Below are positions 12,369-54,929 of a stretch of DNA of 64,000 nt, piece after piece; position 1 is the first letter of the stretch; each line of letters starts with the position of its first letter. The translations under genes and the position numbers were made by a program. The notes below the pieces were generated by a model, which did not search any database, was not told the DNA's origin, and saw nothing but the letters and a program-made list of their open reading frames with translations. This DNA is from Pseudomonadales bacterium (GTDB lineage Bacteria > Patescibacteriota > Microgenomatia > UBA1400 > PJMF01), in the NCBI GenBank assembly GCA_020632265.1, contig JACKFW010000001.1, forward strand, positions 599,272 through 663,271, written 5' to 3'.

Positions 12369-12713
12369 TTAACTACTCAATTGACTCTCAGAACCTAATA
12401 TTGCTTCAACAGATTTAACTGCTTTTTCTAGGGAAATAACTAATTTTTGCGATAAATGCAATACTTCTTTATCTAATGAAATCTTTTTTAAAACTAAATT
12501 GGAATCGTCTACAAATAAATCCAATGCGTAATCAACAATTTCTCCATACTGCTTTTTCCAAACTTCTTGCTCTGCTTTGGAAAGTTGCATAACTTTATTT
12601 AGAACTTTATTAATTTCTTTGACTTCTTTATTTTTTAAATATAAAACAAATTTTAACGAGGAATTAAAATTTTTTGAACGTGGTTTTGATGAAATAGAAT
12701 CTACAGATATCAT
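12369..12713 (-). CDS. Hypothetical protein, 114 aa.
   Basis: Complete ORF directly upstream of yidC. No rnpA-like basic motif. Confidence 0.4.
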   Translation of the reverse strand: MISVDSISSKPRSKNFNSSLKFVLYLKNKEVKEINKVLNKVMQLSKAEQEVWKKQYGEIVDYALDLFVDDSNLVLKKISLDKEVLHLSQKLVISLEKAVKSVEAILGSESQLSS

Positions 12714-12915
12714 AATTGCTATTATTATAGCAAAGTAATTGAATCTTGAAGTAGTATAATACTATACCTGAGAATTAAATATTGTTTTCAACAAAAGATA
12801 AACTTCGCAGATTTATTAAATTACTTGCGCTCTTTAAGAGCATAGATCTAAGCTACGTCATACTTTTTTATGAATATAATGTTAAATTCTCAAAAGTAAA
12901 AAATGAAGTAAAGAA

Positions 12916-14067
12916 ATGAAGATCATCGATATTAAAAAAACTAGCACGAAGGAAATAATTTCAAACTGCATTGAAGTTTTAAATTCTGGTGGCTTAATTA
13001 TCTTTCCTACTGAGACAACCTATGGAGCTGGAGTTGATGCTACAAACCCAAGAGCAGTAGATAAGATTTTAGCCTATAAAAGCCGACGTGAGGGCAAACC
13101 TCTTTCCGTTGCCTTATCAAATAAAGAGACTACTTCTGAGTATATTTATATCAATGATCAAGCCAATGCTTTAATCGATCAATTTTTACCAGGACCAATG
13201 ACAGTTGTGTGCAAAGCAAAACCAGATTCTAAAATTGCTCCCGGTGTTATTTCCGAATTTGGCACCTTAGGCATTAGAATTCCCGACTATAAATTAATCC
13301 TAGATCTTCTTAGAAAGTTTCAAAAACCAATTACTGCTACCTCAGCAAATGGATCAAATAAAAAAAGACCATACACTGTGGATGATGTCCTAAATAACCT
13401 TTCAGAAAAGCAAAAAAAGTTAATAGATTTAATTCTTGATGCGGGTGAATTACCACATAATGAACCTTCTACTGTGATTGATACTACGCTATCTACGCCA
13501 GTAACCATGAGATCTAGAGGAATTGAAAAATCACAAGTTACCAACCTGATTTCAAAATCAGAATCAGAAACCAAAGAAATTGCTGGAAAATTATTATTAA
13601 AACACTGGAATAATGTAAATGAAAAAGGATTGTTGATTGCGCTTGATGGTAAACTTGGCACTGGAAAAACCATTTTTACCAAAGGTTTAGCGGAATTTTT
13701 GAAAATTACTCAGACCGTCAAATCACCCACGTACTCATATATTGAGGAATACGATTATAAACGCCATCAGACTTCTGGCAAATTGTTTCATCTAGATATG
13801 TGGAAGGTTGATAGTCAAGATCTTTTTGATAAATTAGAGGTGATCAAACTTTTTGGGAAAAATAATGTCGTCGTAATTGAATGGTTTGACCAAGTTTCAG
13901 CTTTTCTCTTTGCGAGCTTGAACAAAAATACTCAATTAAACAAAAAAATGCCTAAAATTATAAAAATTGCTATCGAACAAGATGATAAAACCAAAACTGA
14001 TGGAAAAGATGGCATAGATAGCAACATTAGAAAACTCAAAATTACGCTGAATGTAAATTACACATGA
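12916..14067 (+). CDS. Fusion protein: N-terminal TsaC/YrdC (threonylcarbamoyl-AMP synthase) domain plus C-terminal TsaE (YjeE P-loop ATPase) domain, 383 aa.
   Basis: N-terminal half has the YrdC-type segments GGLIIFPTETTYGAGVDA and PSTVIDTT. C-terminal half has the TsaE signatures LDGKLGTGKT, VKSPTYSYIEEYD, HLDMWKV and VVIEWFD. Confidence 0.75.
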   Translation: MKIIDIKKTSTKEIISNCIEVLNSGGLIIFPTETTYGAGVDATNPRAVDKILAYKSRREGKPLSVALSNKETTSEYIYINDQANALIDQFLPGPMTVVCKAKPDSKIAPGVISEFGTLGIRIPDYKLILDLLRKFQKPITATSANGSNKKRPYTVDDVLNNLSEKQKKLIDLILDAGELPHNEPSTVIDTTLSTPVTMRSRGIEKSQVTNLISKSESETKEIAGKLLLKHWNNVNEKGLLIALDGKLGTGKTIFTKGLAEFLKITQTVKSPTYSYIEEYDYKRHQTSGKLFHLDMWKVDSQDLFDKLEVIKLFGKNNVVVIEWFDQVSAFLFASLNKNTQLNKKMPKIIKIAIEQDDKTKTDGKDGIDSNIRKLKITLNVNYT

Positions 14068-15221
14068 ATCAACATATCTCAAAAGATAATATCATCCTGG
14101 CTGTCGACACTTCGTGCGACGATACATCTGCTTCAGTTGTTAAAGGCAATGTGGTTTTATCCAATATTATCGCCTCACAAACAGAACTTCATAGGCCCTA
14201 CGGAGGTGTATTTCCTACTGTAGCCAAACAAGCTCACAAGGAAAATATTGATGCTACTGTCAAACTGGCTTTGAAAAGAGCTAAAGTGGAATTGAAATAT
14301 ATTGATGCCTTGGCAGTTACCGTGGGCCCAGGCCTGGCACCGGCTTTGGAGGTTGGCATCAACTATATCAAGGAGCTTGCTCAGACTACCAACAAGCCCC
14401 TCATTGCAGTAAACCATATCGAGGGGCACGCTCTCTCGGCATTGGCGTGCAGAAATCCCAAAAACCTTTCAAAAAGCATTCCTAAAAAAAATGGTGAACA
14501 CCCTGAAAAAATCAATTTTCCAGTACTCTCCATTGTTGTATCCGGAGGCCACACCGAATTTATTTTATTCAATGAAATCGGAAAATATGAAATTATTGGC
14601 TCAACCATCGATGATGCTGCCGGCGAATGTTTAGATAAAATTGGTAGGATGCTAAACCTTGGATACCCAGCTGGTCCTGTGATAGAAAAGTTTGCAATGC
14701 TCGGAAATCCAAAAGCAATTGAGTTTCCACTCCCAATGACTACTATTAAAAATTTTGACATGAGCTTCTCGGGACTCAAAACATTTGCCCGAAACTATAT
14801 CGAAAGTACTTTCGGGAAAACTTCACTAAATAAACAACAAATTTATGATATGTGTGCATCTACACAATATGGGGTATTTAGGCATATTATATATAAATTG
14901 AACAAAGTTTTATATGCTTATAAAGTCAGTGAAGTTTGGCTTGGTGGTGGAGTGGCTGCAAATACAAAACTTAAGCAAATGATAAGAAAAACTTTGACTG
15001 ATTTTGAGAAAAATGTAAACGCAAAAAATAAAAATGAGGGTAATCAAAAATCATTAGTCAAAATTATATTTAGAACTCCATTTACAAAAAGACTCTGCAT
15101 GGATAATGCGGCAATGATTGGTTTAGTGGCGGGATATAAATTTGATAGAAATGAATTTGCTGAGAATTCAAAGGCACTAGAGAGGTTGCCAAGATTGAAT
15201 GTTGAAAATACTAATTTCTAA
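14064..15221 (+). CDS. tsaD: tRNA N6-adenosine threonylcarbamoyltransferase TsaD (Kae1/Gcp family), 385 aa.
   Basis: AVDTSCDDTSASV, HIEGHA and SGGHTE motifs. Its start overlaps the fusion gene stop (ATGA). Confidence 0.85.
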   Translation: MNQHISKDNIILAVDTSCDDTSASVVKGNVVLSNIIASQTELHRPYGGVFPTVAKQAHKENIDATVKLALKRAKVELKYIDALAVTVGPGLAPALEVGINYIKELAQTTNKPLIAVNHIEGHALSALACRNPKNLSKSIPKKNGEHPEKINFPVLSIVVSGGHTEFILFNEIGKYEIIGSTIDDAAGECLDKIGRMLNLGYPAGPVIEKFAMLGNPKAIEFPLPMTTIKNFDMSFSGLKTFARNYIESTFGKTSLNKQQIYDMCASTQYGVFRHIIYKLNKVLYAYKVSEVWLGGGVAANTKLKQMIRKTLTDFEKNVNAKNKNEGNQKSLVKIIFRTPFTKRLCMDNAAMIGLVAGYKFDRNEFAENSKALERLPRLNVENTNF

Positions 15222-15239: not shown

Positions 15240-15818
15240 TTAGGTTTTTAAGTTTTTGGTCCGTTTAATATTATCCAAATACATTTTCAAATTCGATAAT
15301 AAAAAATCTTGATTCTTGATTGCAGAGCTATCTTTACCTTTATCTTCCGCTGAATCAGCATCATTGCCAGCTGAATCAGCATCATTGCCAGCTGAATCAG
15401 CATCATTGCCAGCTGAACTAGCATCATTGCCAGCTGAATTGGTATTATTGCCAGCTGAACTAGTATTATTGCCAGCTGAACTAGCATCATTGCCAGCTGA
15501 ATTGGTACTATAATCATCAATCAAACTAGTTGAAGATTCATCTAAAATTTCAGGACCATCATAAGATGTAACATTTGGCTTTTTAACAGCAAAATCACTA
15601 TCTTCAAAATCTAACCCGTCAAATGAGAAATTTGATTTTTGTGACAACGAAGAATTTTCTGATTTAAAATATAAGGGGTCGATTCCATCGAGAGCATCAT
15701 CTTCCCCAACATTCAAAGTGCTATTAGCACTCATTCGCCTATCAACTTCTAGTTTTATGTATTCCTGCAACTCATGTTTAAAATTATCAAGAATTTTTTG
15801 GAGTTGATCATTATTCAT
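15240..15818 (-). CDS. Acidic low-complexity protein, 192 aa, with a tandem heptad repeat (SAGNDAD/SAGNNTS)n.
   Basis: ORF contains 7 copies of a 21-nt repeat. N-terminal 60 aa are non-repetitive. Confidence 0.5.
   Translation of the reverse strand: MNNDQLQKILDNFKHELQEYIKLEVDRRMSANSTLNVGEDDALDGIDPLYFKSENSSLSQKSNFSFDGLDFEDSDFAVKKPNVTSYDGPEILDESSTSLIDDYSTNSAGNDASSAGNNTSSAGNNTNSAGNDASSAGNDADSAGNDADSAGNDADSAEDKGKDSSAIKNQDFLLSNLKMYLDNIKRTKNLKT
15350..15500. repeat. 21-bp tandem repeat (gctgaatcagcatcattgcca), about 7 copies, in-frame within the CDS 15240-15818.
   Basis: Seen directly in the sequence. It produces mirror ORFs on both strands in the ORF track. Confidence 0.85.
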
Positions 15819-15986: not shown

Positions 15987-18191
15987 TTATATTGGACAAG
16001 CCCCACTCGCACATTTCAAATGCTCATAATCAATGTCTTCTGCCAATAATTCATCTTTTTCGATTTCATCAAGTACTCTCATGAATTCAGAAGTTGTCAC
16101 CGGCTGCTCAGGTTGGTATTCATAGGCAGTAGCATCTGTTTGAGGCATCACACTACAACATTTTATTCGACTTTGATATTTAATAATCATCTCAGAAAAT
16201 TCTTTATAGCCAACAATTTCCGGATTATATTTCAAGGTGTAGGAAACTTGATTGCCTGTATCCTCTTTGTTTATCTTGCCATCCTTATCAATACCAGTGA
16301 TCCAATATTTTTCCAACAATAATAACCATTTAAATTGTTCTTCGGGAGTTGCTTCGCCTGCGGTAACAAGTTCGCCGTTCATCCCAATTCTACAAATCAA
16401 AGGTTGAGTAGGAAATCCAACTGCAGTTGAGCCTTTATAACTTTGCAAAACTTTAACTGGATAACCTTTTTCTTTATATTTTTTTACCATTGGATCATCA
16501 CTCCTATATTGAACCCATCTTATATATTCGCGCATACTTGGCAAATGAGCCCCTTCAGTCAGAGCAAATAGCTTGGAAACGGTCCCAGATGGTTTAATCG
16601 TGGTATCAGTGTGCGGCGCAGTTACCCCTATCTTTTCAGAATAATTTCTTGCCTCTTCAACTATCGCATTTTTAAATCTTGCTAAGGTCAACCAAAATTC
16701 TTTTGATTTTTCCTCATCGATAAGATCTCTAAAAGCAAATCCATAAGTATTCCAAGCAAATTCGTGAATTCCAGTCATTCCTACGCCAATTCTGTTAGTT
16801 CTTTTTACTTCTCGAGAATATAAACAATCCATTGTGTTGACTCTGATCAGAGCTCTAACTGCGGCTCTAAACGCTTCTTCAGCATCATCAAGTGTAGGAG
16901 CGTGATAAGGAACAACGTCTGCAATCACACAATAACCACCCAACATATTTAATGAAATTTCCCCACAAGGATTAGGAATTTGTGAATACAATTTTGCAGA
17001 GGCATTTCGTGCAATTAAAGACAGCATCTTTTCTGTTCTTTGAGATGGTTTATATTTTTGACTTTCTGCATATTTACCGTCTTGATAATCATCATAACCG
17101 TCATCATTTTGAACTAATCGATGTTGATTAATAAAACCTGGCTCCCCAGTGCCATCATCATAACTAGCTTTCATGATAGCTTCTAAAACTTTTTTAGAAT
17201 GTTTTGTCCTTTGTTTCCAAAATTTTTCATCAACAGTGACGGAATTATTTGCCGACCATAAGAATCCACCCCTTTTGATATCAATAAACTCAAATACTTC
17301 TGGATCAGTCCAATTTTTAGTTGCAATTCTAGCGCTTCTTCTAGCACCACCGACTAAAACACATTCGGCCAAATAATGATCAATAAAAAGTGCTTGTTTC
17401 CAAAGAGGCATGTCTGCTCCTTTTATTGTAGCAACTCTCTCGATTGCGTTCATGATTGGTTTTGGTCCAGAAGCAGGTCTATTTTGCATTCCCCTAATCA
17501 CAGATCCTTTTTCTCTAACATCAGAAAAGTCTAAAATCAATAATTCATCCTTAAATTTTTTTTCATAAGCCATAACTTCCATCATTTCAATTGCTTGAGC
17601 CCAACCTTCACGACTGTCAGGAACTTTAAACCAGTGAATATTGTCACCTTTGCCATACTTATGTTCTGCGTCGCGAACACTCTCATCAAAACCCCAAACA
17701 AAATCTGGATGATCAGAAGAAATCACGCATCTTACGCTTGGCATATTATCCCAATTAACCACACACATATCATCGTCGTATGATCGTCCTACTCCAGATC
17801 CATTCATCAATAAGTAAAACACAATATAAGATGCTGAAGCTGTACTGCAGTTAGTAAAGACTTCCATATTTCTGTTGGGCTGAGTTTCATCTCCATGCTG
17901 TAAATGTCTGCCAGACATCAAAAGTGATGCATTAGCGATATGCTTTCTCAATACTTCATATTCTTCTTTTTGATGTTTTAAGCCCAATCCTTTGATGTTT
18001 TTTACTAACAAAGAATTTCCCAAGGCTACTCTATCAGCAACTTCTTTCCATTTTTCCCAACGCTCTCTACCCGTATCTTTGTCAGTAATTTTCCTCAAGT
18101 AGGTTCTTCGAGCAACAGCAACTCCCATGCCATTATCTAGTTTTCTATTGGTAAATTGCATTTGTTTTTTGGGAAGAGTTTTCTTATTCAT
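15987..18191 (-). CDS. nrdJ: Ribonucleoside reductase, class II (adenosylcobalamin-dependent NrdJ-type), 734 aa.
   Basis: Catalytic NPCGEI motif of class I/II RNRs. No glycine-radical RVCGY motif and no nrdB partner. C-terminal Cys pair CASGAC. Confidence 0.8.
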   Translation of the reverse strand: MNKKTLPKKQMQFTNRKLDNGMGVAVARRTYLRKITDKDTGRERWEKWKEVADRVALGNSLLVKNIKGLGLKHQKEEYEVLRKHIANASLLMSGRHLQHGDETQPNRNMEVFTNCSTASASYIVFYLLMNGSGVGRSYDDDMCVVNWDNMPSVRCVISSDHPDFVWGFDESVRDAEHKYGKGDNIHWFKVPDSREGWAQAIEMMEVMAYEKKFKDELLILDFSDVREKGSVIRGMQNRPASGPKPIMNAIERVATIKGADMPLWKQALFIDHYLAECVLVGGARRSARIATKNWTDPEVFEFIDIKRGGFLWSANNSVTVDEKFWKQRTKHSKKVLEAIMKASYDDGTGEPGFINQHRLVQNDDGYDDYQDGKYAESQKYKPSQRTEKMLSLIARNASAKLYSQIPNPCGEISLNMLGGYCVIADVVPYHAPTLDDAEEAFRAAVRALIRVNTMDCLYSREVKRTNRIGVGMTGIHEFAWNTYGFAFRDLIDEEKSKEFWLTLARFKNAIVEEARNYSEKIGVTAPHTDTTIKPSGTVSKLFALTEGAHLPSMREYIRWVQYRSDDPMVKKYKEKGYPVKVLQSYKGSTAVGFPTQPLICRIGMNGELVTAGEATPEEQFKWLLLLEKYWITGIDKDGKINKEDTGNQVSYTLKYNPEIVGYKEFSEMIIKYQSRIKCCSVMPQTDATAYEYQPEQPVTTSEFMRVLDEIEKDELLAEDIDYEHLKCASGACPI

Positions 18192-18219: not shown

Positions 18220-18669
18220 CTATTCTGTAAGTTTATTTAATTCTTCTTTAAAATCCTCAATGCTGTCAAAATCTCTATACACACTTGCAAAAAGTAAATA
18301 TGACAGTGTATCAACTTTTTTTAGTCTATTAATAACTAGATTTCCGATTTCCCAACTCTTAACTTCACTTGATTTTTTTTGCCTCAACATTCTCTCAACT
18401 TCATCAATTAAATCATCAATGTCTGACATTGATATTGGTCTTTTCCAGGTTGCTTTTGAAAGACCCCTTTTTAACTTTTCTCTAGAAAAATCCTCTTTAG
18501 AACCATCTTTTTTGATCACTTTTAAATCAATGCCCTCAATTCTTTCATAGGTAGTAAAACGTTTTGCACAACTGGAACAACTACGGCGCCTTCTAATTGT
18601 TGTCTGATCTTCAGCCTCGCGTGAGTCAATTACTGACGTTTCTGCCTTGCTACAATAAGGACATTTCAT
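18220..18669 (-). CDS. nrdR: Transcriptional repressor NrdR (zinc ribbon plus ATP cone), 149 aa.
   Basis: MKCPYCS...SVIDSR N-terminus and CSSCAKRF zinc ribbon. Located directly upstream of the RNR gene. Confidence 0.85.
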   Translation of the reverse strand: MKCPYCSKAETSVIDSREAEDQTTIRRRRSCSSCAKRFTTYERIEGIDLKVIKKDGSKEDFSREKLKRGLSKATWKRPISMSDIDDLIDEVERMLRQKKSSEVKSWEIGNLVINRLKKVDTLSYLLFASVYRDFDSIEDFKEELNKLTE

Positions 18670-20225: not shown

Positions 20226-20895
20226 TTTGTAATGTTTTCTGTTGATTGGCTGAATATGTATCTATAATTACATCGTATAGATTTGGACGCCAAAAATCAA
20301 TTGGATCACTAGCTTTTGCTTTGCCAGTTTTAACTACCCACTCATTCCATTCATTAGCATACACTCTTTTCCACTTAGTAAGATTATTGACGTACCTCTC
20401 CTGCATATTTTTAATTGCTTCTCCTGGAGTAACAACGTCTCGATTCACAATTCTATCAACTTTCACTGCCTTATCACTACAAATCATTAAAACCTTTAAG
20501 GTTCCTTCAATATTTTGAGCCATAAAACCTGACAACCATGATTCAATTATCCACCCACTTTCATTGCTCAATTTCTCTCTCATACCAAAGTCTACTTTTC
20601 TATCAAAATCATCTTCATAATGTGAAGCATCATGATGCAAGCCATTTTGCTCAACAAATAACCCTTTTTCTTTGGCGTAGGCTCTCATGAATTCGCCACC
20701 ACTAAAACCAGTCCAACCAGCAAATTTTAGCGCCTCATGTTTTTTTAACTTATTTAATAAAGTCGTTGAACCACTTCCTGGCAAACCAGAAATTGTAATA
20801 TTCTTAAATTTGAAATCATCCCCAGGAGATTTAGGTGACATCATATTTCCTTTATTTTGAAATGTTACTATTCGCTTGGGTATTTCCAAAATCAA
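20200..20895 (-). CDS. Cytidylate-kinase-like (NMP kinase fold) protein with a lysine-less P-loop, probably a pseudokinase or nucleotide-binding protein. 231 aa; the real start is possibly the internal Met at codon 18-19.
   Basis: ITISGLPGSGSTTL aligns with the Cmk ITIDGPSGAGKGT motif, but the Walker A lysine is replaced by Ser. A bona fide cmk gene exists elsewhere in the window. Confidence 0.45.
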   Translation of the reverse strand: MILEIPKRIVTFQNKGNMMSPKSPGDDFKFKNITISGLPGSGSTTLLNKLKKHEALKFAGWTGFSGGEFMRAYAKEKGLFVEQNGLHHDASHYEDDFDRKVDFGMREKLSNESGWIIESWLSGFMAQNIEGTLKVLMICSDKAVKVDRIVNRDVVTPGEAIKNMQERYVNNLTKWKRVYANEWNEWVVKTGKAKASDPIDFWRPNLYDVIIDTYSANQQKTLQIVIDAITK

Positions 20896-21367
20896 CTTGA
20901 CATTCTACCAAAGATTTCATTGAATTGCTCAATTGCATTAATTTATTACCAGCCTCATCTAATGAAATAATATTATCATCATTCACATAATAATGAAAAA
21001 CTCTATTTCTGCATTGTAACCAAGTTTCCCAAAGATCTCGAGCCAATTCCACTCCGCAAATTTGTTCAAGATCATCAAAAAGCCAATACTTATCTCGCTG
21101 ATTTTCGTGCACATCGGGATTTAATGCTTTACCAATGCGAAATCTTTTCCCTTCATAAGTCTTGATATCAATTATTCTTAAATCTAGAAAACTTGTCTTT
21201 AAAAAGCCTTCATAAGCTTTAGACATTGGAAAAACAATAAAAGAATAATCCTCGAGATCTGATTTTAATTCATACTCTCTCTCATATAAATCAACGGCAG
21301 TGCGAACCAGGCGCCTGTGTCTGTCGTTCATAAATGAAAACCAACTATTATCTAAGATATGTCTCAT
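20852..21367 (-). CDS. HEPN-like protein with an Rx4HxY motif (RNRVFHYY), putative RNase or toxin component, 171 aa.
   Basis: A C-terminal R-N-x3-H-x-Y matches the HepT/DUF86-type HEPN active-site signature. Gene end abuts or overlaps the Cmk-like gene. Confidence 0.35.
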   Translation of the reverse strand: MRHILDNSWFSFMNDRHRRLVRTAVDLYEREYELKSDLEDYSFIVFPMSKAYEGFLKTSFLDLRIIDIKTYEGKRFRIGKALNPDVHENQRDKYWLFDDLEQICGVELARDLWETWLQCRNRVFHYYVNDDNIISLDEAGNKLMQLSNSMKSLVECQVDFGNTQANSNISK

Positions 21368-41973: not shown

Positions 41974-42111
41974 ACATCAATCTATTTGCCTTGATTTATA
42001 AAAATTTATAAGTTTCAACATCCAAAAATAACAATAAATAAAACTGCCCAAATATTATCTTAAAAAGAATGATGTTAAAATACTTATTTTAGTGATCAAT
42101 ATATACAATTT

Positions 42112-42723
42112 ATGAATAATTATTTTAACTCTACCAAAAAAAGATTATTCGATATATTTCTTAGCATTATACTTTTAGTTTTGATATTTCCCCTAGTAAT
42201 AGTGTTACTTCCATTCTTATATTTGAAAATAGGTTATCCAATTATATTTAAGCAAGAAAGATTTGGAAAAAATAAAAAAATATTTACTATCTATAAAATT
42301 AGAACTATGAAAATTGGATCGGAAGCTAAGCAAAAATCATTATCAAAAGCTAATATTGCTCCGATACCTATGTTTAAGGTTGAAGATGATCCAAGATTCA
42401 TTTCTTTAGGAAAAATTATTTCTAAACTCGGCATTGATGAATTACCACAATTGTTAAATATATTAAAAGGTGAAATGAGCTTTGTTGGACCACGTCCTCT
42501 TCCAGTTTATGAAGCTGTCAAGCTTTCCTCTTCATGGAACTTTAGATATGAAGCCAGACCAGGATTAATATCTTTTTGGGCTCTTTCACCAAAAAGGTAT
42601 GAGTCACTTAGTAAATGGAAAGAGCTTGAAAAAAACACCCTTAGGATCAACTCTGTTAAAGAAGAAGTGGCACTTGTCTTTAAAGCAATCGATCAAATAA
42701 TAATTAAACGAATTCATTTATAA
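42112..42723 (+). CDS. Bacterial sugar transferase: small polyprenyl-phosphate hexose-1-phosphate transferase (WbaP/WcaJ C-terminal-domain type), the priming enzyme. 203 aa.
   Basis: KRLFDIFLSIILLV..., GKNKKIFTIYKIRTM and DELPQLLNILKGEMSFVGPRP signatures. Confidence 0.8.
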   Translation: MNNYFNSTKKRLFDIFLSIILLVLIFPLVIVLLPFLYLKIGYPIIFKQERFGKNKKIFTIYKIRTMKIGSEAKQKSLSKANIAPIPMFKVEDDPRFISLGKIISKLGIDELPQLLNILKGEMSFVGPRPLPVYEAVKLSSSWNFRYEARPGLISFWALSPKRYESLSKWKELEKNTLRINSVKEEVALVFKAIDQIIIKRIHL

Positions 42724-44946
42724 ATTCGAATTTGGTGAATGGTATGCTTCTAGAGCTCTATCTATATGAATGCCAAAATGGTCAATGGGAATGCCTTCTA
42801 GATTAAGCCAAAATTGCTGTATTTGCTCATCATTATTGAGTAAAGTAAAAACATCTGGCGATAATCTATTAAAACTCCACTCATCAAATTCAAATGCCAT
42901 TTTATACATGTTAGTTGCACTTTCAATATCTTGGTTTTTTAAATCATTATTTCCAATGCTAATTGCTAAATTGGCCAAATACTCACCCAAAAATATTCCT
43001 TCTGAATAACCATTTTTTATCGACTCTTGATTCATTTTCATTATCTCAGTTAATAATTCTCTCAAAGACTGTTGGTCTGTTTCATATAAAAGGCTCAAAT
43101 ACTCTTTTAAATAATCATTCCAATTTGATGAGGATGAAAAATAATTATTATAAATAATGTGATAATTATCATTTGGGTTTATGATAAATAAAGTTGGCAG
43201 TATTCTTCGGTAATAAATTATGGAATGTTGAATATCACCCCTCTGTAATAAACTCAATGCAACTATATGAAGATATTTTAGTATCACTAGTTTTGTAGTT
43301 TGCTGTTGCGGAGTCAGCTCATTATCTAAATTATTCAATACTGTGAGTCCCTGACTTGATACTTCACCAAGTTTTTCATAGTGTTCAAGTTCTTTTAAAG
43401 TTTTTAAATATTCTTCATTGAAAACCACATCAGGTGAATTAATACGAATTTGATCATACAAAAGTTCTTTTATCAATAAATCTTCTGATTCTTCTATGTT
43501 CCTTAATATAAATTCTTCATGATTTTGATAAATCTTATATAGATGTGCCCTATTAGAATCTGATAACGCTCTTCTATTTGAAAGAAAAACTTTTGACTGA
43601 GAGAAAAAATATGGAAATGTTTTAAATGCTAGATCAATAGCATTATCTTTAATCATCATTCTCGTTAATAAATTAACCACTCCTAAAATTATTATCACTA
43701 AAGAAAAAAGTAACCAAGTAAACTTCAAAAATAAATCTGTTTTTATTTCACTTTTTTTGGCTTCTGGATGAAGAAAAAATGCAGCAAATATTAATGACAT
43801 CAGGAATATTGGGAATAAATTCCAATCATAATCAAAAAATGAATTTATTAACAAACTTATAAAACCTATGTAAACAAATTTATTTATCAAAAATTTATCA
43901 TCTTTTTGACTATAAATTTCATAACCTTTTTTTATAATAAAGATAATTATGAAAGAAAAAAATAGTCCAGATAACAGACCAGATTCAGAAGTAAGCTGCA
44001 AAATAAAATTATGAGCATAAATTGAGCTATATTGAGGATCCTTAGTATATTTTCTTGTTATCAATTGAAAAGTGCCTGGTCCAAACCCAAATATGGGATT
44101 TTCTTTAATTGATAGTAAGGATTGCTTAAAATACTCAGGCCTGGCTTCATTGGTAATTTGTTTACATAATTGGTTTTTATATGTGGCTACATAACAACTC
44201 TCTTTCGATACAAAAGAAGAAAAAATTATCAATAAAAGAACAAACCCTAGAGATATATTCACTAAATAGAAGCTTGATTTTTTAAATTGTTTACTTTCTA
44301 CTAAATTATACAAAAATGGCAATTGAACTAAAGATATTAAGAAGGCCAACCTACCGAATGACAAAATCAATAAAATATAAAATAAAATTAATAATGGCTT
44401 TTTAAATCTAAATACTAAATTATCATCTACAAAAACATACCACCAGGCTAATGGAATTAAAAATATAAGAATAGCAGCAAAATGACTATGACCATAAACT
44501 GCGGTCAGGACATTTATTGGAGGCAAAAATGTTGATAAATTTGGATAACTAAAATAACCAATAAAAAATAATGAGAGTGCAAACCCCACTAATAAATATG
44601 TATAAATAAACTCAGATGGTGAAAATATTTTTTTTTGCTTTAAACTTTCAAAAAATACGTAGACACAAAAAGATGAAAAATAAAATATTAATGAATCAAG
44701 TGAAAGTGGTATGCTGTGTGTAAAGATTGCTGATGCTAATAATAACATCAATAACCCAAACCATAAGAATTTTATTCGACTATCTAAAGATATATCCAAC
44801 TTAAAAACCCAAGAGTACAATAGTAAAAATAATAGAAATAATGAAATAATCATAATTTCATAGCCAGTTGAAAAAAAGAAAACTAACAAAAATTGAAAGC
44901 AAGCAAAAAGAAATAAAAAAATACTCTTTTTAAGTGGTAGAATCAT
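42718..44946 (-). CDS. O-antigen ligase/polymerase-family (Wzy_C) membrane protein with a large C-terminal soluble, TPR-like domain, 742 aa.
   Basis: Signature HNFILQLTSESGLLSG (H..x..E.G..G) after about 10 TM helices. Confidence 0.55.
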   Translation of the reverse strand: MILPLKKSIFLFLFACFQFLLVFFFSTGYEIMIISLFLLFLLLYSWVFKLDISLDSRIKFLWFGLLMLLLASAIFTHSIPLSLDSLIFYFSSFCVYVFFESLKQKKIFSPSEFIYTYLLVGFALSLFFIGYFSYPNLSTFLPPINVLTAVYGHSHFAAILIFLIPLAWWYVFVDDNLVFRFKKPLLILFYILLILSFGRLAFLISLVQLPFLYNLVESKQFKKSSFYLVNISLGFVLLLIIFSSFVSKESCYVATYKNQLCKQITNEARPEYFKQSLLSIKENPIFGFGPGTFQLITRKYTKDPQYSSIYAHNFILQLTSESGLLSGLFFSFIIIFIIKKGYEIYSQKDDKFLINKFVYIGFISLLINSFFDYDWNLFPIFLMSLIFAAFFLHPEAKKSEIKTDLFLKFTWLLFSLVIIILGVVNLLTRMMIKDNAIDLAFKTFPYFFSQSKVFLSNRRALSDSNRAHLYKIYQNHEEFILRNIEESEDLLIKELLYDQIRINSPDVVFNEEYLKTLKELEHYEKLGEVSSQGLTVLNNLDNELTPQQQTTKLVILKYLHIVALSLLQRGDIQHSIIYYRRILPTLFIINPNDNYHIIYNNYFSSSSNWNDYLKEYLSLLYETDQQSLRELLTEIMKMNQESIKNGYSEGIFLGEYLANLAISIGNNDLKNQDIESATNMYKMAFEFDEWSFNRLSPDVFTLLNNDEQIQQFWLNLEGIPIDHFGIHIDRALEAYHSPNSNL

Positions 44947-45044
44947 GTAACAATGCTAACATAATCAGTGCCACCATTCCTAGTCTCAGGCACTTATTTT
45001 TATAAAATAAATAATTGTAGCATCAAGAATAAAATATAATTAAT

Positions 45045-45920
45045 ATGCAAATTGCTTTAATTGGATATGGATATTGGGGTCATAAAATTTATAAAACTTT
45101 AAGTAAGATAATTTCGTCAAAAAATATCTCGGTTGTAGACATAAATATCAATGATTCAACAGGTAAACTTAAAATTGAATCAATTATTAATATACTTTCG
45201 GATGATAAAATTAATCATGTTATTATCGCTACTCCAGAAGAAACCCACTATAAAATTGCAAAAATTTGTCTAGAAAACTCAAAGAATGTTTTCGTTGAAA
45301 AACCACTTTGTTTAAAAAAGAATGAGGCTATTGAACTACATCAACTGGCAAATAAAAAGAATCTAGGACTTTATGTTGACTATATATTTCTTTTCGATCC
45401 CTATGTAAGAAAGATTAAAAGCATTATTGACCGTGGCACTTTAGGAAGATTGCTTCATATAAAATCAATCCGTCACTCGATAAACATTAATAAACCAAAT
45501 ATAACTGTATTCGATGACCTGGCTACTCACGATATTTATTTAGGCAAGTTCTTTTTTGAAAATTATTGTAAAAAGTTTGCAACTTTAAATGAATCAGTTC
45601 AAGAAGCACAAGTTAATCAAGTCAACCAAGCTTCAATTGTTTTTTATTATGGCAAAAATACTCTTTCAGCAAATTACAGCTGGGTTCAGCCAACTTCCAA
45701 AAGAGTCATGACGTTTATAGGCGATTTAACAACCTTGGTATGGGATAAGAACATGAAATCCTTATATCTGTATAAAAAACAAAAACGAATTAAAAAGATA
45801 GAAATAAAATCTAGCGATTCCGCACTAGAACTTTCAATAAAAGAATTTCTTTTTAATAAACCAAAAAGTAACTATGCAAATGATGTAGAACTTTTAGAGA
45901 ACATTAATGCAAATTCATAA
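45045..45920 (+). CDS. Gfo/Idh/MocA-family NAD(P)-dependent oxidoreductase (WbpB-like sugar 3-dehydrogenase candidate), 291 aa.
   Basis: N-terminal Rossmann IALIGYGYWGHK and an EKPL motif (VFVEKPLCL). Confidence 0.65.
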   Translation: MQIALIGYGYWGHKIYKTLSKIISSKNISVVDININDSTGKLKIESIINILSDDKINHVIIATPEETHYKIAKICLENSKNVFVEKPLCLKKNEAIELHQLANKKNLGLYVDYIFLFDPYVRKIKSIIDRGTLGRLLHIKSIRHSININKPNITVFDDLATHDIYLGKFFFENYCKKFATLNESVQEAQVNQVNQASIVFYYGKNTLSANYSWVQPTSKRVMTFIGDLTTLVWDKNMKSLYLYKKQKRIKKIEIKSSDSALELSIKEFLFNKPKSNYANDVELLENINANS

Positions 45921-45957
45921 GAATTATTAATATTTACATTATGTTAAAATCAATTTC

Positions 45958-47064
45958 ATGAAGAAAATACCCTTATTTGATCTAAAACGACAACATTTTT
46001 TAATTAAAAAAAATGTTCTTAAAAGTTGGGAACAAATTTACGATAAGAATCAGTTTACCAGCGGTGATGAAACTAATAATTTTGAAAAAAAATTTGCAAA
46101 ACTCTGTAATGTTAAATATTCCCTAGGAATTCATTCTGGAACCGACTCTCTTATCATTGCACTTAGTGCAGCTGGAATCAAAGATGGAGATGAAGTCATT
46201 ACTACGCCATGCACTTTTTCGGCTTCATCTGATTGCATTGTTCACGTTGGTGCAAAACCTGTATTCGCTGATGTATTATCGAATACTGGAAATATAGATC
46301 CGACAGAAATTGAAAATAAAATAACTTCAAAAACAAAAGCAATTTTATTAGTTCATCTGTATGGAGTACCTTGTAAAATGGATGAAATAATTAAAATTGC
46401 CAATGATAATAATCTATTAATAATTGAAGACGCATCTCATGCTCATGGGAGTCTTTACAAAAAAAAACCAGTTGGTTCATTTGGTCTAGCTGGTTGTTTT
46501 TCACTTTATCCGTCGAAGTCTCTAGGGGCGCTAGGAAATGCAGGTATTATTACTTCAAATAATAAGTCATTTATAAAAAAATCTAGAATGTTAGCTAATC
46601 ATGGAATAAAAAATTTGAAGACTAAGTATATTCATTATTTTTCTGGTTTTAACAAATTAATTGATAACTTACAATCTGCAGCGTTGAATTGTAAATTGCC
46701 ATACATACAAAAGGTAATTAATAGGAAATTAGAAATAGCTAATCAATACAATAATGCTTTTGAACAAATCGGTTTGAAAGGAATGTATTGGCCTAAATAT
46801 GTTGTTCCATCAATATATATATATTCTTTTCAAACTAAAAGAAGAAAGAAAGTTATCAATATTTTTGAAAAAAACGGCATTTCAACTGGAGTCTATTACC
46901 CCATTCCTCTCCACTTACAACCTTCAATGAAATTTCTTGGATATACCAAAGGTGACTTTCCCAATGCAGAACTTTTTTTTAAACAAACTTTATCTTTGCC
47001 AATTTTCCCAGAACTCACTAACAGGGAAATTAATAAAGTGATTTTCGCAATTAAGCAACTATGA
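45958..47064 (+). CDS. DegT/DnrJ/EryC1/StrS-family PLP-dependent sugar aminotransferase (WbpE-like), 368 aa.
   Basis: Fold-type I aminotransferase layout. The GTDSL, DASHAHG and FSLYPSKSLGALG segments are typical of the DegT family. Confidence 0.8.
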   Translation: MKKIPLFDLKRQHFLIKKNVLKSWEQIYDKNQFTSGDETNNFEKKFAKLCNVKYSLGIHSGTDSLIIALSAAGIKDGDEVITTPCTFSASSDCIVHVGAKPVFADVLSNTGNIDPTEIENKITSKTKAILLVHLYGVPCKMDEIIKIANDNNLLIIEDASHAHGSLYKKKPVGSFGLAGCFSLYPSKSLGALGNAGIITSNNKSFIKKSRMLANHGIKNLKTKYIHYFSGFNKLIDNLQSAALNCKLPYIQKVINRKLEIANQYNNAFEQIGLKGMYWPKYVVPSIYIYSFQTKRRKKVINIFEKNGISTGVYYPIPLHLQPSMKFLGYTKGDFPNAELFFKQTLSLPIFPELTNREINKVIFAIKQL

Positions 47065-47861
47065 GAATACATTTCTTAAAAAAACATATTTATCTAATAT
47101 TGCTCTTTTTATTCATATTTATTACATTTTTATACTCTATGCAGGACATCTCAAGACCAATGATTGCGGAAGGAGATGCCTACTCAAGGGTTAATGAAAC
47201 AATTAAGCAAAAAGACCTTAATATTTATTTTAATAAGTACGGAGGTGCATGGTTGCCTCTTTATTTCTCTATGATGGTTTCGGCTTTATCTTTACTTAAT
47301 AATTCGCACATAACTCCAAGATTAATTACATTAGTCTTTAGTTTGTCGTCTTGTGCAGCATTATATTTTTATACAAAAGAATATACCAAAGATAAAATCA
47401 TTGCTCTTCTTTCTTCCTTTATATACTTAATTTTTCCGCTTAGACTTTTTCTTAGTACGCAAACATTATCGGAAACCATTTTTATATTCTTTTTATTGGT
47501 GAGCTTTACATTTTTATTGAAAGAAAAATTAAATACTTATGAACTAATTTTGACATTATTATTTGTAAATATTGCCCATGGTATCAGATATGAATCTTGG
47601 ATTATTTTGCCATTAATTTGGATTATTGTTCTATCAAGAAAAAACAGCTATAAAGTAAAAAGTCTGTTAATTTTTTCTAGCACACTATTTCCGCTCTATT
47701 GGCTTTACCTCAACCAAATATACACAGGAAATTATTTAACTTTTTTCAACGTCAAATATGAAGTTGCTCAAAGTAATAAAATATCTCAATACTCTAATTT
47801 TTATTTATCTTATAAAGCCTGGAGAGATAAACTCATTCCTTTATTCCAATTCCATTTATAA
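47061..47861 (+). CDS. N-terminal portion of a GT-C (ArnT/PMT-like) membrane glycosyltransferase, 266 aa, possibly disrupted.
   Basis: First-loop acidic motif AEGDAYSR. Multiple TM helices. Followed in the same frame by ORF 47916-48548 after three stop codons. Confidence 0.4.
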   Translation: MRIHFLKKHIYLILLFLFIFITFLYSMQDISRPMIAEGDAYSRVNETIKQKDLNIYFNKYGGAWLPLYFSMMVSALSLLNNSHITPRLITLVFSLSSCAALYFYTKEYTKDKIIALLSSFIYLIFPLRLFLSTQTLSETIFIFFLLVSFTFLLKEKLNTYELILTLLFVNIAHGIRYESWIILPLIWIIVLSRKNSYKVKSLLIFSSTLFPLYWLYLNQIYTGNYLTFFNVKYEVAQSNKISQYSNFYLSYKAWRDKLIPLFQFHL

Positions 47862-47915
47862 TGCTTGCTTTTTATGATTTCAAATCCTTAATAAAAAAAT
47901 TTTAACTATAAAAAA

Positions 47916-48548
47916 TTGATCTATTATGGTCTTCCAGTAATCTTGTTCGCCTCACTAATTATTCAAGTATACTTGGGCACAATGGAGTGGTTTCCATCAA
48001 GATATTTGCTTATTCCAATCACCTCTATCATACCCATGTTGTCATCTACAATATGGAACATAATAATAGAATATAAAAAAATACTTAGAGATCAATATTC
48101 AATTAAAAAGTTTCTCAAGTTAATATTATTATTTTTATTTTCTATAATAATTGTTTTTGAGTACAACCTATCTTTTAAATATACAGACTTAGAAATTAAT
48201 GACTGGGCTCTCTTACAATCATATAATCAACCAGATGTAAATATTGAAAACAGCATACTTTACAATGATTTTACATCAGTAATCTATGTAATAAAAAAAC
48301 TGAACATCGATAAAGCTATTTACTTTAATAAAGATATAAATAAATCTTATATGGATCAAGGAATTTTTTATTTTTCTCAAGCTGATGGCATTGTTGCCAA
48401 CAAATCAGAGCTCAGTAAACTCATTCAAAAAGATCAGGTTTATATTTGGGAAAGAGACTTTGATGAGCAAGAAGAAAAAATATTAGAAAAATTTATAAAA
48501 CTATATTCAAATGACACATTCTACTTACTTAAGTTAGAGCATTTATAG
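47916..48548 (+). pseudogene. Probable C-terminal portion of the same GT-C glycosyltransferase (TTG start in the track), a split or pseudogenised gene.
   Basis: Same reading frame as 47061-47861. TM helices are followed by a soluble domain. Separated by in-frame stops at 47859, 47889 and 47892. Confidence 0.3.
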
Positions 48549-49273
48549 AAGTCACCAGGGACTTTAATGCATTTAATATTTAAATTTTTATGATTTAAAT
48601 ACACTTCTGAATGTAATAAAAATTCTTCATCCTGATCAAGAAGTTCGGTTTTCTTGATGTCAAATAAAATATTTTTTAAAGGACAAAGTTTTATAAGTGC
48701 ATTATATGAAGTAGCCTCACATTTATAATATCCAACTTCTAAAAGATGTGGACTTATAATCACAATTTCATCATGATTTCTTTGTGGAAAATCAAACTTA
48801 GGATAAAATATATTTTTATAATTGCTCGATGTAATCAATAAAATTATAAAAATATATAAAAATAAGTCTGACTTATTTTTTTGCATTGCAAGTGCATAAC
48901 CCCAATATATTGAAATAATACTTGCAAGAACAAACATTTGCCTGATATGAAAGAAGTGGAAAGAACCTAGGAAATTTATTAAATATGCAAAAAATAAAAT
49001 TATGATTGAGAATATAAACATATAATGAAATATTATTTCTTTATTTTTTCGAAAAGCCTGAATTTCAATTTTTATAGAACGTAAAAATTTTATGATTATA
49101 GCGATTAATAGAAAAGAAATCATCAAACAAAATATTTCTATATCATTTGTAATTAATCCAATTTTTTCAAAATAATTAAAGTAATCAAAACCACTTAAGC
49201 TCAAAAATGAAAGTCCAAAGTCATAAAATTCAGGGATTTTTACCCAATTTAGAAATAAGGGTATTCCTCCCAT
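48521..49273 (-). pseudogene. Membrane protein fragment, 250 aa, possibly the 3' part of a frameshifted polytopic membrane protein gene.
   Basis: Adjacent to and co-oriented with the ORF 49279-49782, which is in a different frame. Both are hydrophobic. Confidence 0.3.
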
Positions 49274-49278
49274 ATCAT

Positions 49279-49782
49279 TTAAAAAATTGAAAACAAAAAT
49301 AATGTAAATAAAGTTAAAATTATTATTGGAAATATTATTGCCGATAAATTAAATTTCTGCAACGCAAATGCTTTAAAAAATATCAGTAACAAAAGTTTGA
49401 TTACTATCCAGATTACATAACCATAAACAAATAATAAACCAATTACATCAATTAAATATGATATGAATAAATGTTTTTCTCTACCTGTTCGAATAAAATA
49501 TAAAAATAGATACAAAGAGCAAATGAACAAGAAAATTCCTGCTCCATACATTCTTAGCATATATCCAAATCTTAAGAAATAAAGAGAGATAGAAAAGGGA
49601 AAAATAAATAATAATTTTTGCTCGAAATTAAAATTAAATAAGCTTCCAATCTTAAAAAGAATTAATATATTAGTTAAAATGAATAGCAGGTTAAAAAATT
49701 TTATATAAATTACTTGATCAACAAATTTAAGAACTACCTTTAGTAAAATAAAATATCCATTAGGATTTGTAATTTCGATCAA
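49279..49782 (-). pseudogene. Membrane protein fragment, 167 aa, the 5' part of the putative frameshifted gene.
   Basis: Four to five TM helices. The stop at 49279 is followed 6 nt later by the next ORF in another frame. Confidence 0.3.
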
Positions 49783-49937
49783 CTTAGTGAAGAAATGATT
49801 TAGAGGATATGAATTTGCTTCGAAAATTGAAACTATTTCATCACCATATAGACTTGAATTTAAAAAATAATGTAGGTGAAATAGAAACGCAATAAATAAA
49901 CTATAGATAAATAATAAATCGAAAATTAAAAATTTTT

Positions 49938-50915
49938 TTAAAATTTTTCATAAATATTTTGAATTGTACTATACAAACCAATCTTAAACTCTGTCTTTGA
50001 TTTCCAACCCAAACTTCTTAACTTCGAACTATCCAGCATTCTTCTCTGAGAGCCTTCTGGTTTTGTTGTATCGTAAAAAATTTTTAGTTTTTTATCATTA
50101 AAAAACTTTGCAATTAGCTCCACTACTTCTTTAACTGTTTTCTCACAATTAGAATCTACATTATAAACTTCTCCAGCAACACCTCTTTCAGCTAAAACTA
50201 ACAAGGCATTTACTACATCATCTACATAAATAAATGATCGCTTTTGATTTCCGCTACCGAATATTTCAACTTTCTTATCAGCCTCAATAAATTTTCTAAT
50301 TACAACGGGAATAAAATGTCCCATTTCATCATAATTATCGTCTTCTCCATAGACATTAATAAATCTTACAATCACAGTATCTAATCCGGTATCTTTATAG
50401 TACCAATTGGCTAAATATTCGCCCATTTGCTTGGCAAGCGCATATCCAAGCTTTGACTTTTCGGGCTCACCACCGGCTGCAGATTCTGGAGTTGGAATTT
50501 GATTTACCATTGCGTCTGTAGAATATATGCTTGCAGAACTAGCTTGAATAAATCTTTTTACACTGCCACTTTTTTGAGACATCTTAAGGGGCATCATCTG
50601 AAGCAGCATATTTTGCTCAAACATTACCTCTGTTCTGCCCAAATCAAAATCGACACCGGTATTCAATGCTGCTAAATTGAAAATTATTTCTTGGTTTTTA
50701 AAATACTTTTGAGAAGATTTCAAGTTTGTTACATCTGCTTTATAAAAATTAATTTTATCTTTAATATCAATTAATCGATTAATATTTCCCCTCGAAAGAT
50801 TATCAATAATACTAACCTTAGATCCCAGCAAAGCTAACTTACGAGCTAGATGTGATCCAATGAACCCAGCCCCACCAGTTATCAATACATTTTTATTTAA
50901 AAAATAATCATTCAT
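49938..50915 (-). CDS. NAD-dependent epimerase/dehydratase (extended SDR; UDP-sugar 4-epimerase-like), 325 aa.
   Basis: VLITGGAGFIGSHLARKL Rossmann motif and YALAK (YxxxK). Confidence 0.75.
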   Translation of the reverse strand: MNDYFLNKNVLITGGAGFIGSHLARKLALLGSKVSIIDNLSRGNINRLIDIKDKINFYKADVTNLKSSQKYFKNQEIIFNLAALNTGVDFDLGRTEVMFEQNMLLQMMPLKMSQKSGSVKRFIQASSASIYSTDAMVNQIPTPESAAGGEPEKSKLGYALAKQMGEYLANWYYKDTGLDTVIVRFINVYGEDDNYDEMGHFIPVVIRKFIEADKKVEIFGSGNQKRSFIYVDDVVNALLVLAERGVAGEVYNVDSNCEKTVKEVVELIAKFFNDKKLKIFYDTTKPEGSQRRMLDSSKLRSLGWKSKTEFKIGLYSTIQNIYEKF

Positions 50916-52080: not shown

Positions 52081-52128
52081 TTGATTAATAGACTAAAAGA
52101 TATCATAACATGTGATAAAATCTAGTCT

Positions 52129-53223: not shown

Positions 53224-53226
53224 ATT

Positions 53227-54186: not shown

Positions 54187-54929
54187 ATTCTTTTTATTAG
54201 ATATTTAGGTATTAAAATTAAATATCTCCTCCACAATCTTAATGGAGAAACTAGCAATCTGAATAACCACTCTAATCCCATACTTTGAACCATGGCGGGA
54301 GCCATAGGTTGTTTATCTGCCAAAAAATCAAACGCAGCTCCAACACAAAGAATAGACGTAGCAGGTAGCAACTTTGACCAACGGGAAGCTAACTTTACTT
54401 GTTTAGGGGAACTTAATCCTATCCAAAGAACATCAATCTTGTGTTTGATAATGTCAGCAATATAATTTGCCTCTTCCACAAGAGTTAAATCTCTAAAAGG
54501 TGGGGAGATCATACCAAGAACAGTAAGATTAGGATTTATTTTTTTTACATTAATACTAAGCTTATCTAAAGTGCTTTGGGAGGATCCATAAAATAGATGC
54601 CGTATTTTTTTATCACTCATTGCGAGAATATCTTTGGTTAAATTCGGTCCATACACTCTTTCAACTCGTTGACTTTTCTTCAACATATTTCGCCACTTAT
54701 TTTTTAAACTGAAAAACCAAACTAAAGGCATGCCATCTGTTACACAGAAATCTATTGATCTGTAATCCTTTTGTAAGGATACATTCTCTTCAATAGATGC
54801 TAAATCATTTAAAGAAATTGGCAAAAGAGTAAATTTTTCTTTTCTGCTAATTTTTCTAGAAATAAACTCGGTGACCGATGATCTTGTTCCAATTAAAAAA
54901 TTTATGTTTTCAAGTTTTATTCTCTTCAT
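54165..54929 (-). CDS. WecB/TagA/CpsF-family glycosyltransferase (GT26), 254 aa.
   Basis: The CVTDGMPLVW motif matches the DGMPLVW signature of WecG/TagA. Confidence 0.6.
   Translation of the reverse strand: MKRIKLENINFLIGTRSSVTEFISRKISRKEKFTLLPISLNDLASIEENVSLQKDYRSIDFCVTDGMPLVWFFSLKNKWRNMLKKSQRVERVYGPNLTKDILAMSDKKIRHLFYGSSQSTLDKLSINVKKINPNLTVLGMISPPFRDLTLVEEANYIADIIKHKIDVLWIGLSSPKQVKLASRWSKLLPATSILCVGAAFDFLADKQPMAPAMVQSMGLEWLFRLLVSPLRLWRRYLILIPKYLIKRIYLFFFN

Follow-up and report, generated by a model that had tools for sequence, protein, structure and literature searches.

A conserved TsaC-TsaE fusion encoded directly ahead of tsaD in Patescibacteria

The bacterial synthesis of N6-threonylcarbamoyladenosine (t6A), a modification found in tRNA, relies on TsaC, which makes the unstable intermediate threonylcarbamoyl-AMP (TC-AMP), and on TsaD, which transfers the threonylcarbamoyl group to A37 (PMC6009658, PMC10484737). 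In the canonical systems (E. coli, T. maritima; structures 6s84 and 6n9a) TsaC and the ATPase TsaE are separate proteins and tsaE is followed by tsaB. Here we describe a locus in a 64,000-nucleotide, low-GC (about 31%) stretch of contig JACKFW010000001.1 (assembly GCA_020632265.1, positions 599,272 to 663,271), referred to as the window, which holds the same three families with all their motifs in another arrangement: TsaC and TsaE are one polypeptide, and the tsaE module is followed by tsaD, with no tsaB in the neighbourhood searched. The locus is probably a two-gene t6A operon, in which a bifunctional TsaC-TsaE protein would bring TC-AMP synthesis to a TsaE-docked TsaD.

What such a fusion might achieve depends on the role assigned to TsaE. 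The ATP-bound protein sits at the active-site entrance of TsaD, touches TsaB as well as TsaD and keeps tRNA out (PMC6009658), and it is required for multiple turnovers (PMC6009658, PMC10484737). A loop with the sequence SPT(F/Y)T reaches from it into the active site of TsaD and comes to lie beside the modelled TC-AMP. Missoury et al. proposed that TsaE 'prepares' TsaD for TC-AMP arriving from TsaC, that the loop senses this intermediate, and that ATP hydrolysis then releases TsaE and tRNA binds (PMC6009658). A rival description sees TsaE as a post-catalytic 'reset' (Luthra et al., as cited in PMC6009658). The four-protein complex has been seen only transiently, and no stable TsaC-TsaBDE complex has been isolated (PMC6009658); proximity of TsaC and TsaD has been suggested as a way around the diffusion of labile TC-AMP (PMC10484737). 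The original prediction, made from the DNA alone, stated that TsaC and TsaE act at different steps. This is unsettled, as the published model puts both proteins on TsaBD at the same step, the loading of TC-AMP (PMC6009658).

Natural fusions in and around this pathway offer several points of comparison. Sua5/TsaC2 proteins are two-domain TC-AMP synthases and, like the present protein, have YrdC at the N-terminus joined by a linker to an alpha/beta domain at the C-terminus; here, however, the second domain is TsaE, Pfam gives no SUA5 match, and the protein is not a Sua5. TobZ and HypF (YrdC-like plus Kae1/TsaD-like) and Pandoravirus TsaN (TsaD-TsaC-SUA5-TcdA) likewise couple an adenylate-forming module covalently, with delivery of the labile adenylate as the rationale, and an internal channel connects the sites in TobZ and HypF. 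In these proteins the synthase is fused to the transferase, whereas here its partner is the regulatory ATPase and the transferase remains a protein of its own. Archaeal Kae1-Bud32 (MJ1130, HVO_1895) resembles our fusion in involving an ATPase/kinase-type accessory subunit of the t6A transferase, and one and the same helical insertion of Kae1/TsaD serves as the binding site for both Bud32 and TsaE. Yet there the ATPase is joined to the transferase Kae1 and not to the TC-AMP synthase, and the folds of Bud32 and TsaE are unrelated. Along the same lines, yeaZ::rimI::ygjD, yjeE::alr, hydrolase::yeaZ and the TsaC/HemK fusion of M. genitalium support functional links between t6A genes, but none of these reported fusions joins TsaC/YrdC to TsaE/YjeE. 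One survey of YgjD-complex fusions remarked that a physical link of YrdC to the complex had yet to be reported, and full-text literature searches returned no description of a TsaC-TsaE fusion or of t6A synthesis in bacteria belonging to the Candidate Phyla Radiation (CPR). Public records name the fusion proteins as only TsaC or only TsaE. Since the fusion is visible in public domain annotations, it is undescribed rather than unseen.

The claim that a single open reading frame (ORF) of 383 codons carries a complete YrdC domain followed by a complete TsaE domain holds, as both halves score above the curated cut-offs of Pfam and NCBIfam. Sua5_yciO_yrdC (PF01300) covers aa 20-199 (E 6e-46, 156.5 bits against a cut-off of 25.1) and the TC-AMP synthase model TIGR00057 covers aa 8-210 (172.3 against 123.2 bits). 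The C-terminal half scores as TsaE with PF02367 at aa 214-333 (E 3e-25, 88.9 against 26.6 bits) and with TIGR00150 (73.5 against 60.1 bits). Within the TsaC module, the motif PTETTYG at aa 31-37 stands beside K55-S-R57 and S143-A-N145, the K-x-R and S-x-N pairs being what we take to be the TsaC catalytic tetrad. The motifs GKLGTGKT, SPTYS, HLDMWK and IEWF, on which the TsaE assignment was first based, were all located in the second module (Table 1). This module departs from other TsaEs in two details: a Ser replaces the final Thr of SPT(F/Y)T, and W-K follows H-x-D where those compared have Y-R. T252 would be the counterpart of the Mg-binding Thr42 and E322 that of the Mg-coordinating Glu108 of T. 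maritima TsaE (roles from PMC6009658). The two modules are complete TsaC and TsaE family members with their catalytic motifs intact.

An AlphaFold2 model of the fusion, generated from an alignment of 53 of the best 120 fusion homologues, agrees with this division. It has a mean predicted local distance difference test score (pLDDT) of 90.8 and a predicted template-modelling score (pTM) of 0.81, with pLDDT above 90 for most of aa 1-199 and about 68-73 at the linker. The final TsaC strand spans aa 196-199 and the first TsaE strand begins at aa 208, which leaves a free tether of about 8 residues. In Foldseek comparisons against the PDB, the N-terminal half shows the twisted open alpha/beta sheet of YrdC and matches E. 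coli YrdC (1hru; target-normalized TM-score, TMt, 0.80; root mean square deviation, rmsd, 3.0 Å) and YciO (1k7j; TMt 0.82), and the C-terminal half matches HI0065 (1htw; TMt 0.78) and the T. maritima TsaE of the TsaBDE complex (6s84_B; TMt 0.75). Sequence matches in the PDB belong to the same two families. The top matches of the whole chain are the two-domain Sua5/TsaC2 proteins (6f87, 9dsq, 3aje; E about 1e-19), but with an overall rmsd of 14-16 Å the superposition is confined to the YrdC half. In its topology the fusion places TsaE where Sua5 carries the SUA5 domain.

How widely is this arrangement kept? An independent assembly (Logan SRR28385526) of public reads encodes exactly the same 383-aa protein and, behind it, the beginning of tsaD. 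In a collection of 5.8 billion proteins, all 120 best relatives (347-402 aa, 54-66% identity) carry both Pfam domains. A junction-spanning query of 161 aa (aa 140-300) was then compared with 1.84 billion representatives clustered at 50% identity and gave 194 matches at E<=1e-10. Among the best 150 of these 194, both domains occur in 135, always in the order TsaC to TsaE, and both are nearly complete in 89, with a median length of 361 aa; the query aligns in one stretch in most of the 150. The fusion therefore extends over no fewer than 135 of the 50%-identity clusters, with sequence identity falling to about 32-35%. It is also found at full length in the loci of 26 GTDB species representatives (34-62% identity), and two further assemblies encode it as a single ORF. 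Related genomes thus share the fusion, and it is genuine and ancient.

The pattern of conservation across the 53 aligned homologues follows the domain architecture. In the TsaC part P31, E33, T34, Y36, G37, K55, R57, R121, S143, N145 and R199 are invariant, as are G245, G248, G250, K251 and T252 of the P-loop and S270, P271, T272, Y273, H292, D294, W296, E322 and W323 at the other TsaE sites; K297 is nearly invariant. The least conserved block is the linker, with a majority fraction of 0.31 and a distance from R199 to T219 of 17-30 aa, and the TsaE tail after W323 is variable as well (27-60 aa). A varying linker between conserved domains points to a real inter-domain linker that has been selected to stay in frame. 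An internal restart at M198, which would yield a separate TsaE, was considered and rejected: homologues have L or M at this position, so it is not a conserved start.

All credibly named relatives of the fusion are Patescibacteria, labelled Pacebacteria, Woesebacteria, Beckwithbacteria, Microgenomates or 'Patescibacteria group', taxa that NCBI now places under Minisyncoccota. Many of the orthologous loci are filed under names such as 'uncultured Pseudomonadales', 'Gammaproteobacteria', 'archaeon', 'Vitreimonas' or 'Clostridia', and the source contig itself (1,082,363 bp) is labelled 'Pseudomonadales bacterium' by NCBI. These non-CPR labels, including that of the source genome, look like placeholder misassignments; gene content, synteny and the credibly named relatives argue for an origin in an ultra-small bacterium of the Patescibacteria. 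The description of the fusion as unusual is consequently right for bacteria in general but not as a peculiarity of this genome, since within a large CPR clade it is the rule.

The gene downstream of the fusion is a clear tsaD. Its product scores 319.2 bits with TIGR03723 (cut-off 296.1) and E 1.6e-73 with PF00814, and the metal-binding H118-IEG-H122, the N-terminal AVDTSCDDT and DNAAMI can be read from its sequence. At the junction, ACACATGAATC, the tsaD ATG (14064-14066) overlaps the fusion TGA (14065-14067), a reading of the original prediction that the letters confirm directly. In the 23 loci that hold both genes, tsaD always lies downstream of the fusion on the same strand; stop and start overlap in 11 of them, the gap is at most 30 bp in 14 and exceeds 200 bp in 6. 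As the gene 3' of tsaD is convergent, the operon consists of two cistrons. A promoter scan upstream of the fusion did not rise above chance in this AT-rich DNA (18 found, 15.2 expected), and a terminator scan at the operon, again in AT-rich DNA, found none.

The wider neighbourhood is conserved too. The order groEL-groES-Band7-yidC-small ORF on the minus strand, then fusion-tsaD on the plus strand and, further on, class II ribonucleotide reductase-nrdR, holds in relatives down to about 52% identity. A neighbour-joining tree of TsaD, which has no support values and is indicative only, places all fusion-linked TsaDs in one clade, separate from those of canonical tsaE-tsaB-(rimI)-tsaD loci. This clade includes L032 and L087, two CPR loci in which a stand-alone tsaE is directly followed by tsaD. 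The small ORF of 114 aa (12369-12713, minus strand) is the divergent neighbour 5' of the fusion and, on its own strand, immediately precedes yidC; its position is kept in nearly all relatives (107-126 aa) and it has no family match. It was also considered as a hidden truncated TsaB and rejected, as neither NCBIfam nor local profiles give a TsaB signal. Convergent with tsaD is a 192-aa ORF (15240-15818, minus strand) with a 21-bp tandem repeat (7.4 copies, 91% matches, 15349-15503) encoding an array of SAGNDA[SD]-type heptapeptides. Relatives have no homologue of it at the same position, and varied inserted genes fill this interval there. The ribonucleotide reductase (734 aa, 15987-18191, minus strand) adjoins nrdR (18220-18669, minus strand), and the orthologous reductases of L003 and L005 contain PF21995, the class II insertion domain. 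In most relatives the two genes stay together, a few kb 3' of tsaD.

TsaB, the dimerization subunit of the canonical four-protein system, was not found in the sequence covered. Within the window, which is about 6% of the source genome, no tsaB was found by phmmer with E. coli TsaB, by Pfam on 20 TsaB-sized ORFs or by NCBIfam on the unannotated small ORFs. A profile of 50 TsaBs run on all ORFs of at least 40 aa at E<=50 matched only TsaD, and a profile of truncated TsaBs (mini-TsaBs, described below) gave no TsaB match, in line with the first observation that the window lacks tsaB. Applied to about 28 fusion loci, which measure up to 21 kb and amount to about 2-6% of each fusion genome, the same two profiles found no TsaB, full-length or truncated. 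In about 50 non-CPR loci the TsaB profile detected TsaB directly after tsaE in all (126-239 bits), and in every CPR locus tested it detected TsaD only; L088-L091 proved to be non-CPR contigs. No tsaB was found in the neighbourhoods of the stand-alone tsaE genes of L032, L046 and L087. A 121-aa ORF upstream of tsaE in L087 was tried as TsaB and was negative too, resembling a membrane/coiled-coil protein. A scan of viral contigs with the TsaB alignment gave nothing.

A metagenome scan for the GPGSFTG motif revealed what other CPR bacteria do. It returned complete mini-TsaB ORFs of about 100-130 aa that consist of the N-terminal ASKHA subdomain only, keep the motif GPGSFTG[LI]R and in many cases share a C-terminal tail, ...EK.V.P.YG....IT.P[RK]K. 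In L102, L164, L184 and L190 their genes come immediately behind a stand-alone tsaE, and in L104, with a 4-bp overlap, behind a stand-alone tsaC (Table 1). A mini-TsaB profile matches at least 7970 proteins, and in CPR-type genomes members of this family usually have a stand-alone tsaE as their immediate upstream neighbour. Each of the top 120 has a length of 115-141 aa and is named TsaB by NCBI/JGI, and their contigs are up to 0.9 Mb long. CPR bacteria with a separate tsaE thus keep a truncated TsaB behind it, and in the fusion clade tsaD occupies the same slot. As TsaE touches both TsaB domains in the solved TsaBDE complex, the truncation should alter the TsaE interface.

Bacterial t6A genes are generally essential, which makes the transposon sequencing (Tn-seq) result for Southlakia epibionticum, a cultivated Saccharibacterium, unusual. 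According to the supplement of PMC10633639, a 393-bp tsaB adjoins tsaE in this species, tsaD and tsaC form a separate pair, and all four genes (tsaC, tsaD, tsaE and mini-tsaB; SEML1_0047, 0048, 0713 and 0714) scored as non-essential by Tn-seq. The tsaB-rny synteny of Southlakia recurs in L212. Taken together, t6A gene order appears to have been repeatedly reshuffled across CPR bacteria.

Table 1 Coordinates of the fusion operon in the window and of t6A genes in comparison loci
Feature	Locus	Position	Strand	Basis or remark
tsaC-tsaE fusion gene	window	12916..14067	+	ORF, ATG start, 383 aa + stop
TsaC/YrdC (L-threonylcarbamoyladenylate synthase) domain, aa 1-199	window	12916..13512	+	profile scores, fold
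K55-x-R57, half of TsaC catalytic tetrad	window	13078..13086	+	sequence, alignment
S143-x-N145, other half of TsaC catalytic tetrad	window	13342..13350	+	sequence, alignment
Inter-domain linker, about aa 200-207	window	13513..13536	+	low conservation, pLDDT
TsaE (YjeE) P-loop ATPase domain, aa 208-383, with variable Lys-rich C-terminal tail	window	13537..14064	+	
Walker A / P-loop GKLGTGKT, aa 245-252	window	13648..13671	+	sequence
SPTYS loop, aa 270-274	window	13723..13737	+	sequence; equivalent of TsaE SPT(F/Y)T loop
HLDMWK, Walker-B-like H-x-D motif of TsaE, aa 292-297	window	13789..13806	+	sequence
IEWF motif, aa 321-324	window	13876..13887	+	sequence
tsaD (tRNA A37 threonylcarbamoyltransferase), 385 aa	window	14064..15221	+	TIGR03723, PF00814
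ATGA, tsaD start overlapping fusion stop	window	14064..14067	+	translational coupling
Divergent intergenic region 5' of the operon, presumed promoter region (putative)	window	12714..12915	.	between 114-aa ORF and fusion
mini-TsaB	L102	3040-3432	+	
mini-TsaB	L164	5790-6221	-	
mini-TsaB	L184	4173-4499	+	
mini-TsaB	L190	140-586	-	
mini-TsaB	L106	1206-1598	-	
mini-TsaB	L104	1409-1732	-	
Stand-alone tsaC	L104	1729-2025	-	
mini-TsaB	L212	10001-10393	+	
Stand-alone tsaE then tsaD	L032	9965-11524		
Stand-alone tsaE then tsaD	L087	4016-5537		

Can the roles of the single proteins be combined into a working scheme for the operon? Judged by its sequence, the TsaC module would make labile TC-AMP from threonine, bicarbonate and ATP, the TsaE module, a P-loop ATPase, would dock, together with ATP, at the entrance to the active site of TsaD, and the translationally coupled TsaD would transfer the threonylcarbamoyl group to A37 of ANN-decoding tRNAs. 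A short tether of about 8-20 residues would keep TsaC beside TsaE, and docking of TsaE on TsaD, with or without TsaB, would thereby position the source of TC-AMP at the complex. Loading of TC-AMP would then coincide with the TsaE-bound state, and ATP hydrolysis would release the whole TsaC-TsaE protein and free the site for tRNA. The fusion would also fix the stoichiometry of TsaC to TsaE at 1:1, and the stop/start overlap may couple the synthesis of TsaD to that of the fusion. Read as a 'Rosetta stone', the conserved fusion would fit the view that TsaE prepares TsaD, a published model that is itself unproven. The suggestion that we see an adaptation of a reduced genome may be right and agrees with the CPR-restricted distribution.

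Several other explanations have to be weighed against this scheme. Chances are next to nil that in this metagenome-assembled genome a sequencing or assembly artefact, such as a frameshift or lost stop, has joined two genes: the protein is identical in the SRR28385526 assembly, the junction is in frame, the 26 GTDB species representatives and two other assemblies all encode a single ORF, the linkers of the relatives differ in length, and the junction-spanning query matches most of the best 150 representatives in one stretch. The concern about the domain junction that accompanied the original prediction is thereby removed. Very improbable, too, is a protein that is not a t6A enzyme, with a YciO-like paralogue as its N-terminal domain or a degenerate P-loop as its C-terminal one. 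The fold alone cannot separate the paralogues, as Foldseek fits YciO about as well as YrdC. Against this stand the score with the TIGR00057 equivalog (172 against 123 bits), the invariance of the K-x-R/S-x-N tetrad and of Walker A, SPTY, H-x-D and EW, the lack of a second TsaC or TsaE homologue in the window, and the linkage to tsaD in every locus holding both genes. A more serious possibility, though one we hold to be improbable, is a neutral fusion, in which adjacent tsaC and tsaE genes were merged by stop loss in compact CPR genomes with no gain beyond co-expression, and both domains work independently, just as they do as separate proteins. The weakly conserved linker, variable in length and sequence, fits such an origin, as does the variety of CPR arrangements, from tsaE ahead of tsaD (L032, L087) or of mini-tsaB (the four loci above) to tsaC ahead of mini-tsaB (L104) and tsaD ahead of tsaC (Southlakia), which suggests a fluid gene order. 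The unfused L032 and L087 moreover nest among fused lineages in the TsaD tree. A neutral origin sits less well with the maintenance of the fusion, in fixed domain order, across at least 135 clusters and down to about 32-35% identity, and with the pTM and the tether of about 8 residues, which suggest a defined two-domain unit and not beads on a string. Surveys of YgjD-complex fusions, furthermore, report none comparable, which would be odd if such a fusion formed easily and neutrally.

The position of TsaB leads to yet another explanation, namely a TsaB-independent minimal system in which TsaB has been lost, TsaD forms a homodimer like mitochondrial Qri7, and TsaC-TsaE is its sole partner. We consider this unlikely. 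It would account for the lack of tsaB and mini-tsaB in the window and in about 28 fusion loci, even at E<=50, and for the presence of tsaD in the slot behind the tsaE module where tsaB follows in every non-CPR locus fetched and mini-tsaB follows stand-alone tsaE in CPR. None of the 120 best mini-TsaBs lies on a matching fusion-bearing contig, an uninformative comparison, as these are 120 of at least 7970 matches. On the other side, with about 2-6% of each genome covered tsaB may lie elsewhere, mini-TsaB is very widespread in CPR, and TsaE contacts TsaB as well as TsaD in the solved complex (PMC6009658), so that an intact TsaE argues for a TsaB-like partner. The more specific version, in which the t6A machine of the fusion clade is reduced to tsaCE plus tsaD, with TsaB lost, TsaD self-dimerizing like Qri7 and a TsaE-type ATPase that brings its own synthase, is a little less likely still; if true, such a two-gene machine would give the universal t6A pathway an architecture not known before. 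The reading we prefer, delivery of TC-AMP synthesis to a TsaE-docked TsaD, faces difficulties of its own. Any benefit of the tether is something we infer, and in the published model TsaC docks as in TobZ, on the side of TsaD that lies opposite TsaE (PMC6009658). A tether of about 8-20 residues would hardly span this distance, so that either TsaC would have to dock elsewhere, beside TsaE, or the fusion would have to act in trans on a second, neighbouring TsaD within a higher-order assembly. A 'reset after catalysis' role of TsaE needs no TsaC nearby. Canonical TsaE requires ATP and TsaB to dock at the TsaB-TsaD interface, and its ATPase activity is stimulated by TsaBD, but none of the fusion loci searched has a tsaB close by. 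Finally, t6A genes scored as non-essential in one cultivated CPR bacterium, and selection on efficiency may therefore be weak.

Elsewhere in the window, a 171-aa ORF (20852-21367, minus strand) has sub-threshold matches to RnlA/RNase LS HEPN toxin domains (E 2e-4 and 1e-3) and may be a toxin-like gene. Positions 42000-58000 hold a sugar-transferase/glycosyltransferase cluster (Bac_transf, WecG/TagA, GFO_IDH_MocA oxidoreductase) together with several ORFs without a family match. The GC content here is markedly below that of the rest of the window and is lowest, at 0.23, around 48-50 kb; the region may represent a variable island for cell-surface polysaccharides.

Two questions about t6A synthesis are still open: by which route TC-AMP passes from TsaC to TsaD, and what purpose the ATPase cycle of TsaE serves. 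A conserved TsaC-TsaE protein provides independent evolutionary evidence that the two share their place and time of action, and it is a ready reagent to trap TsaC, TsaE and TsaD together, with or without TsaB, for structural and kinetic work. The naming of such fusions after a single function also has a practical side, as annotation pipelines may score the other function as missing in these genomes. Together, the fusion and mini-TsaB contribute to a view of CPR bacteria as rebuilding a universal pathway, and they raise the possibility of a further reduced t6A machine.

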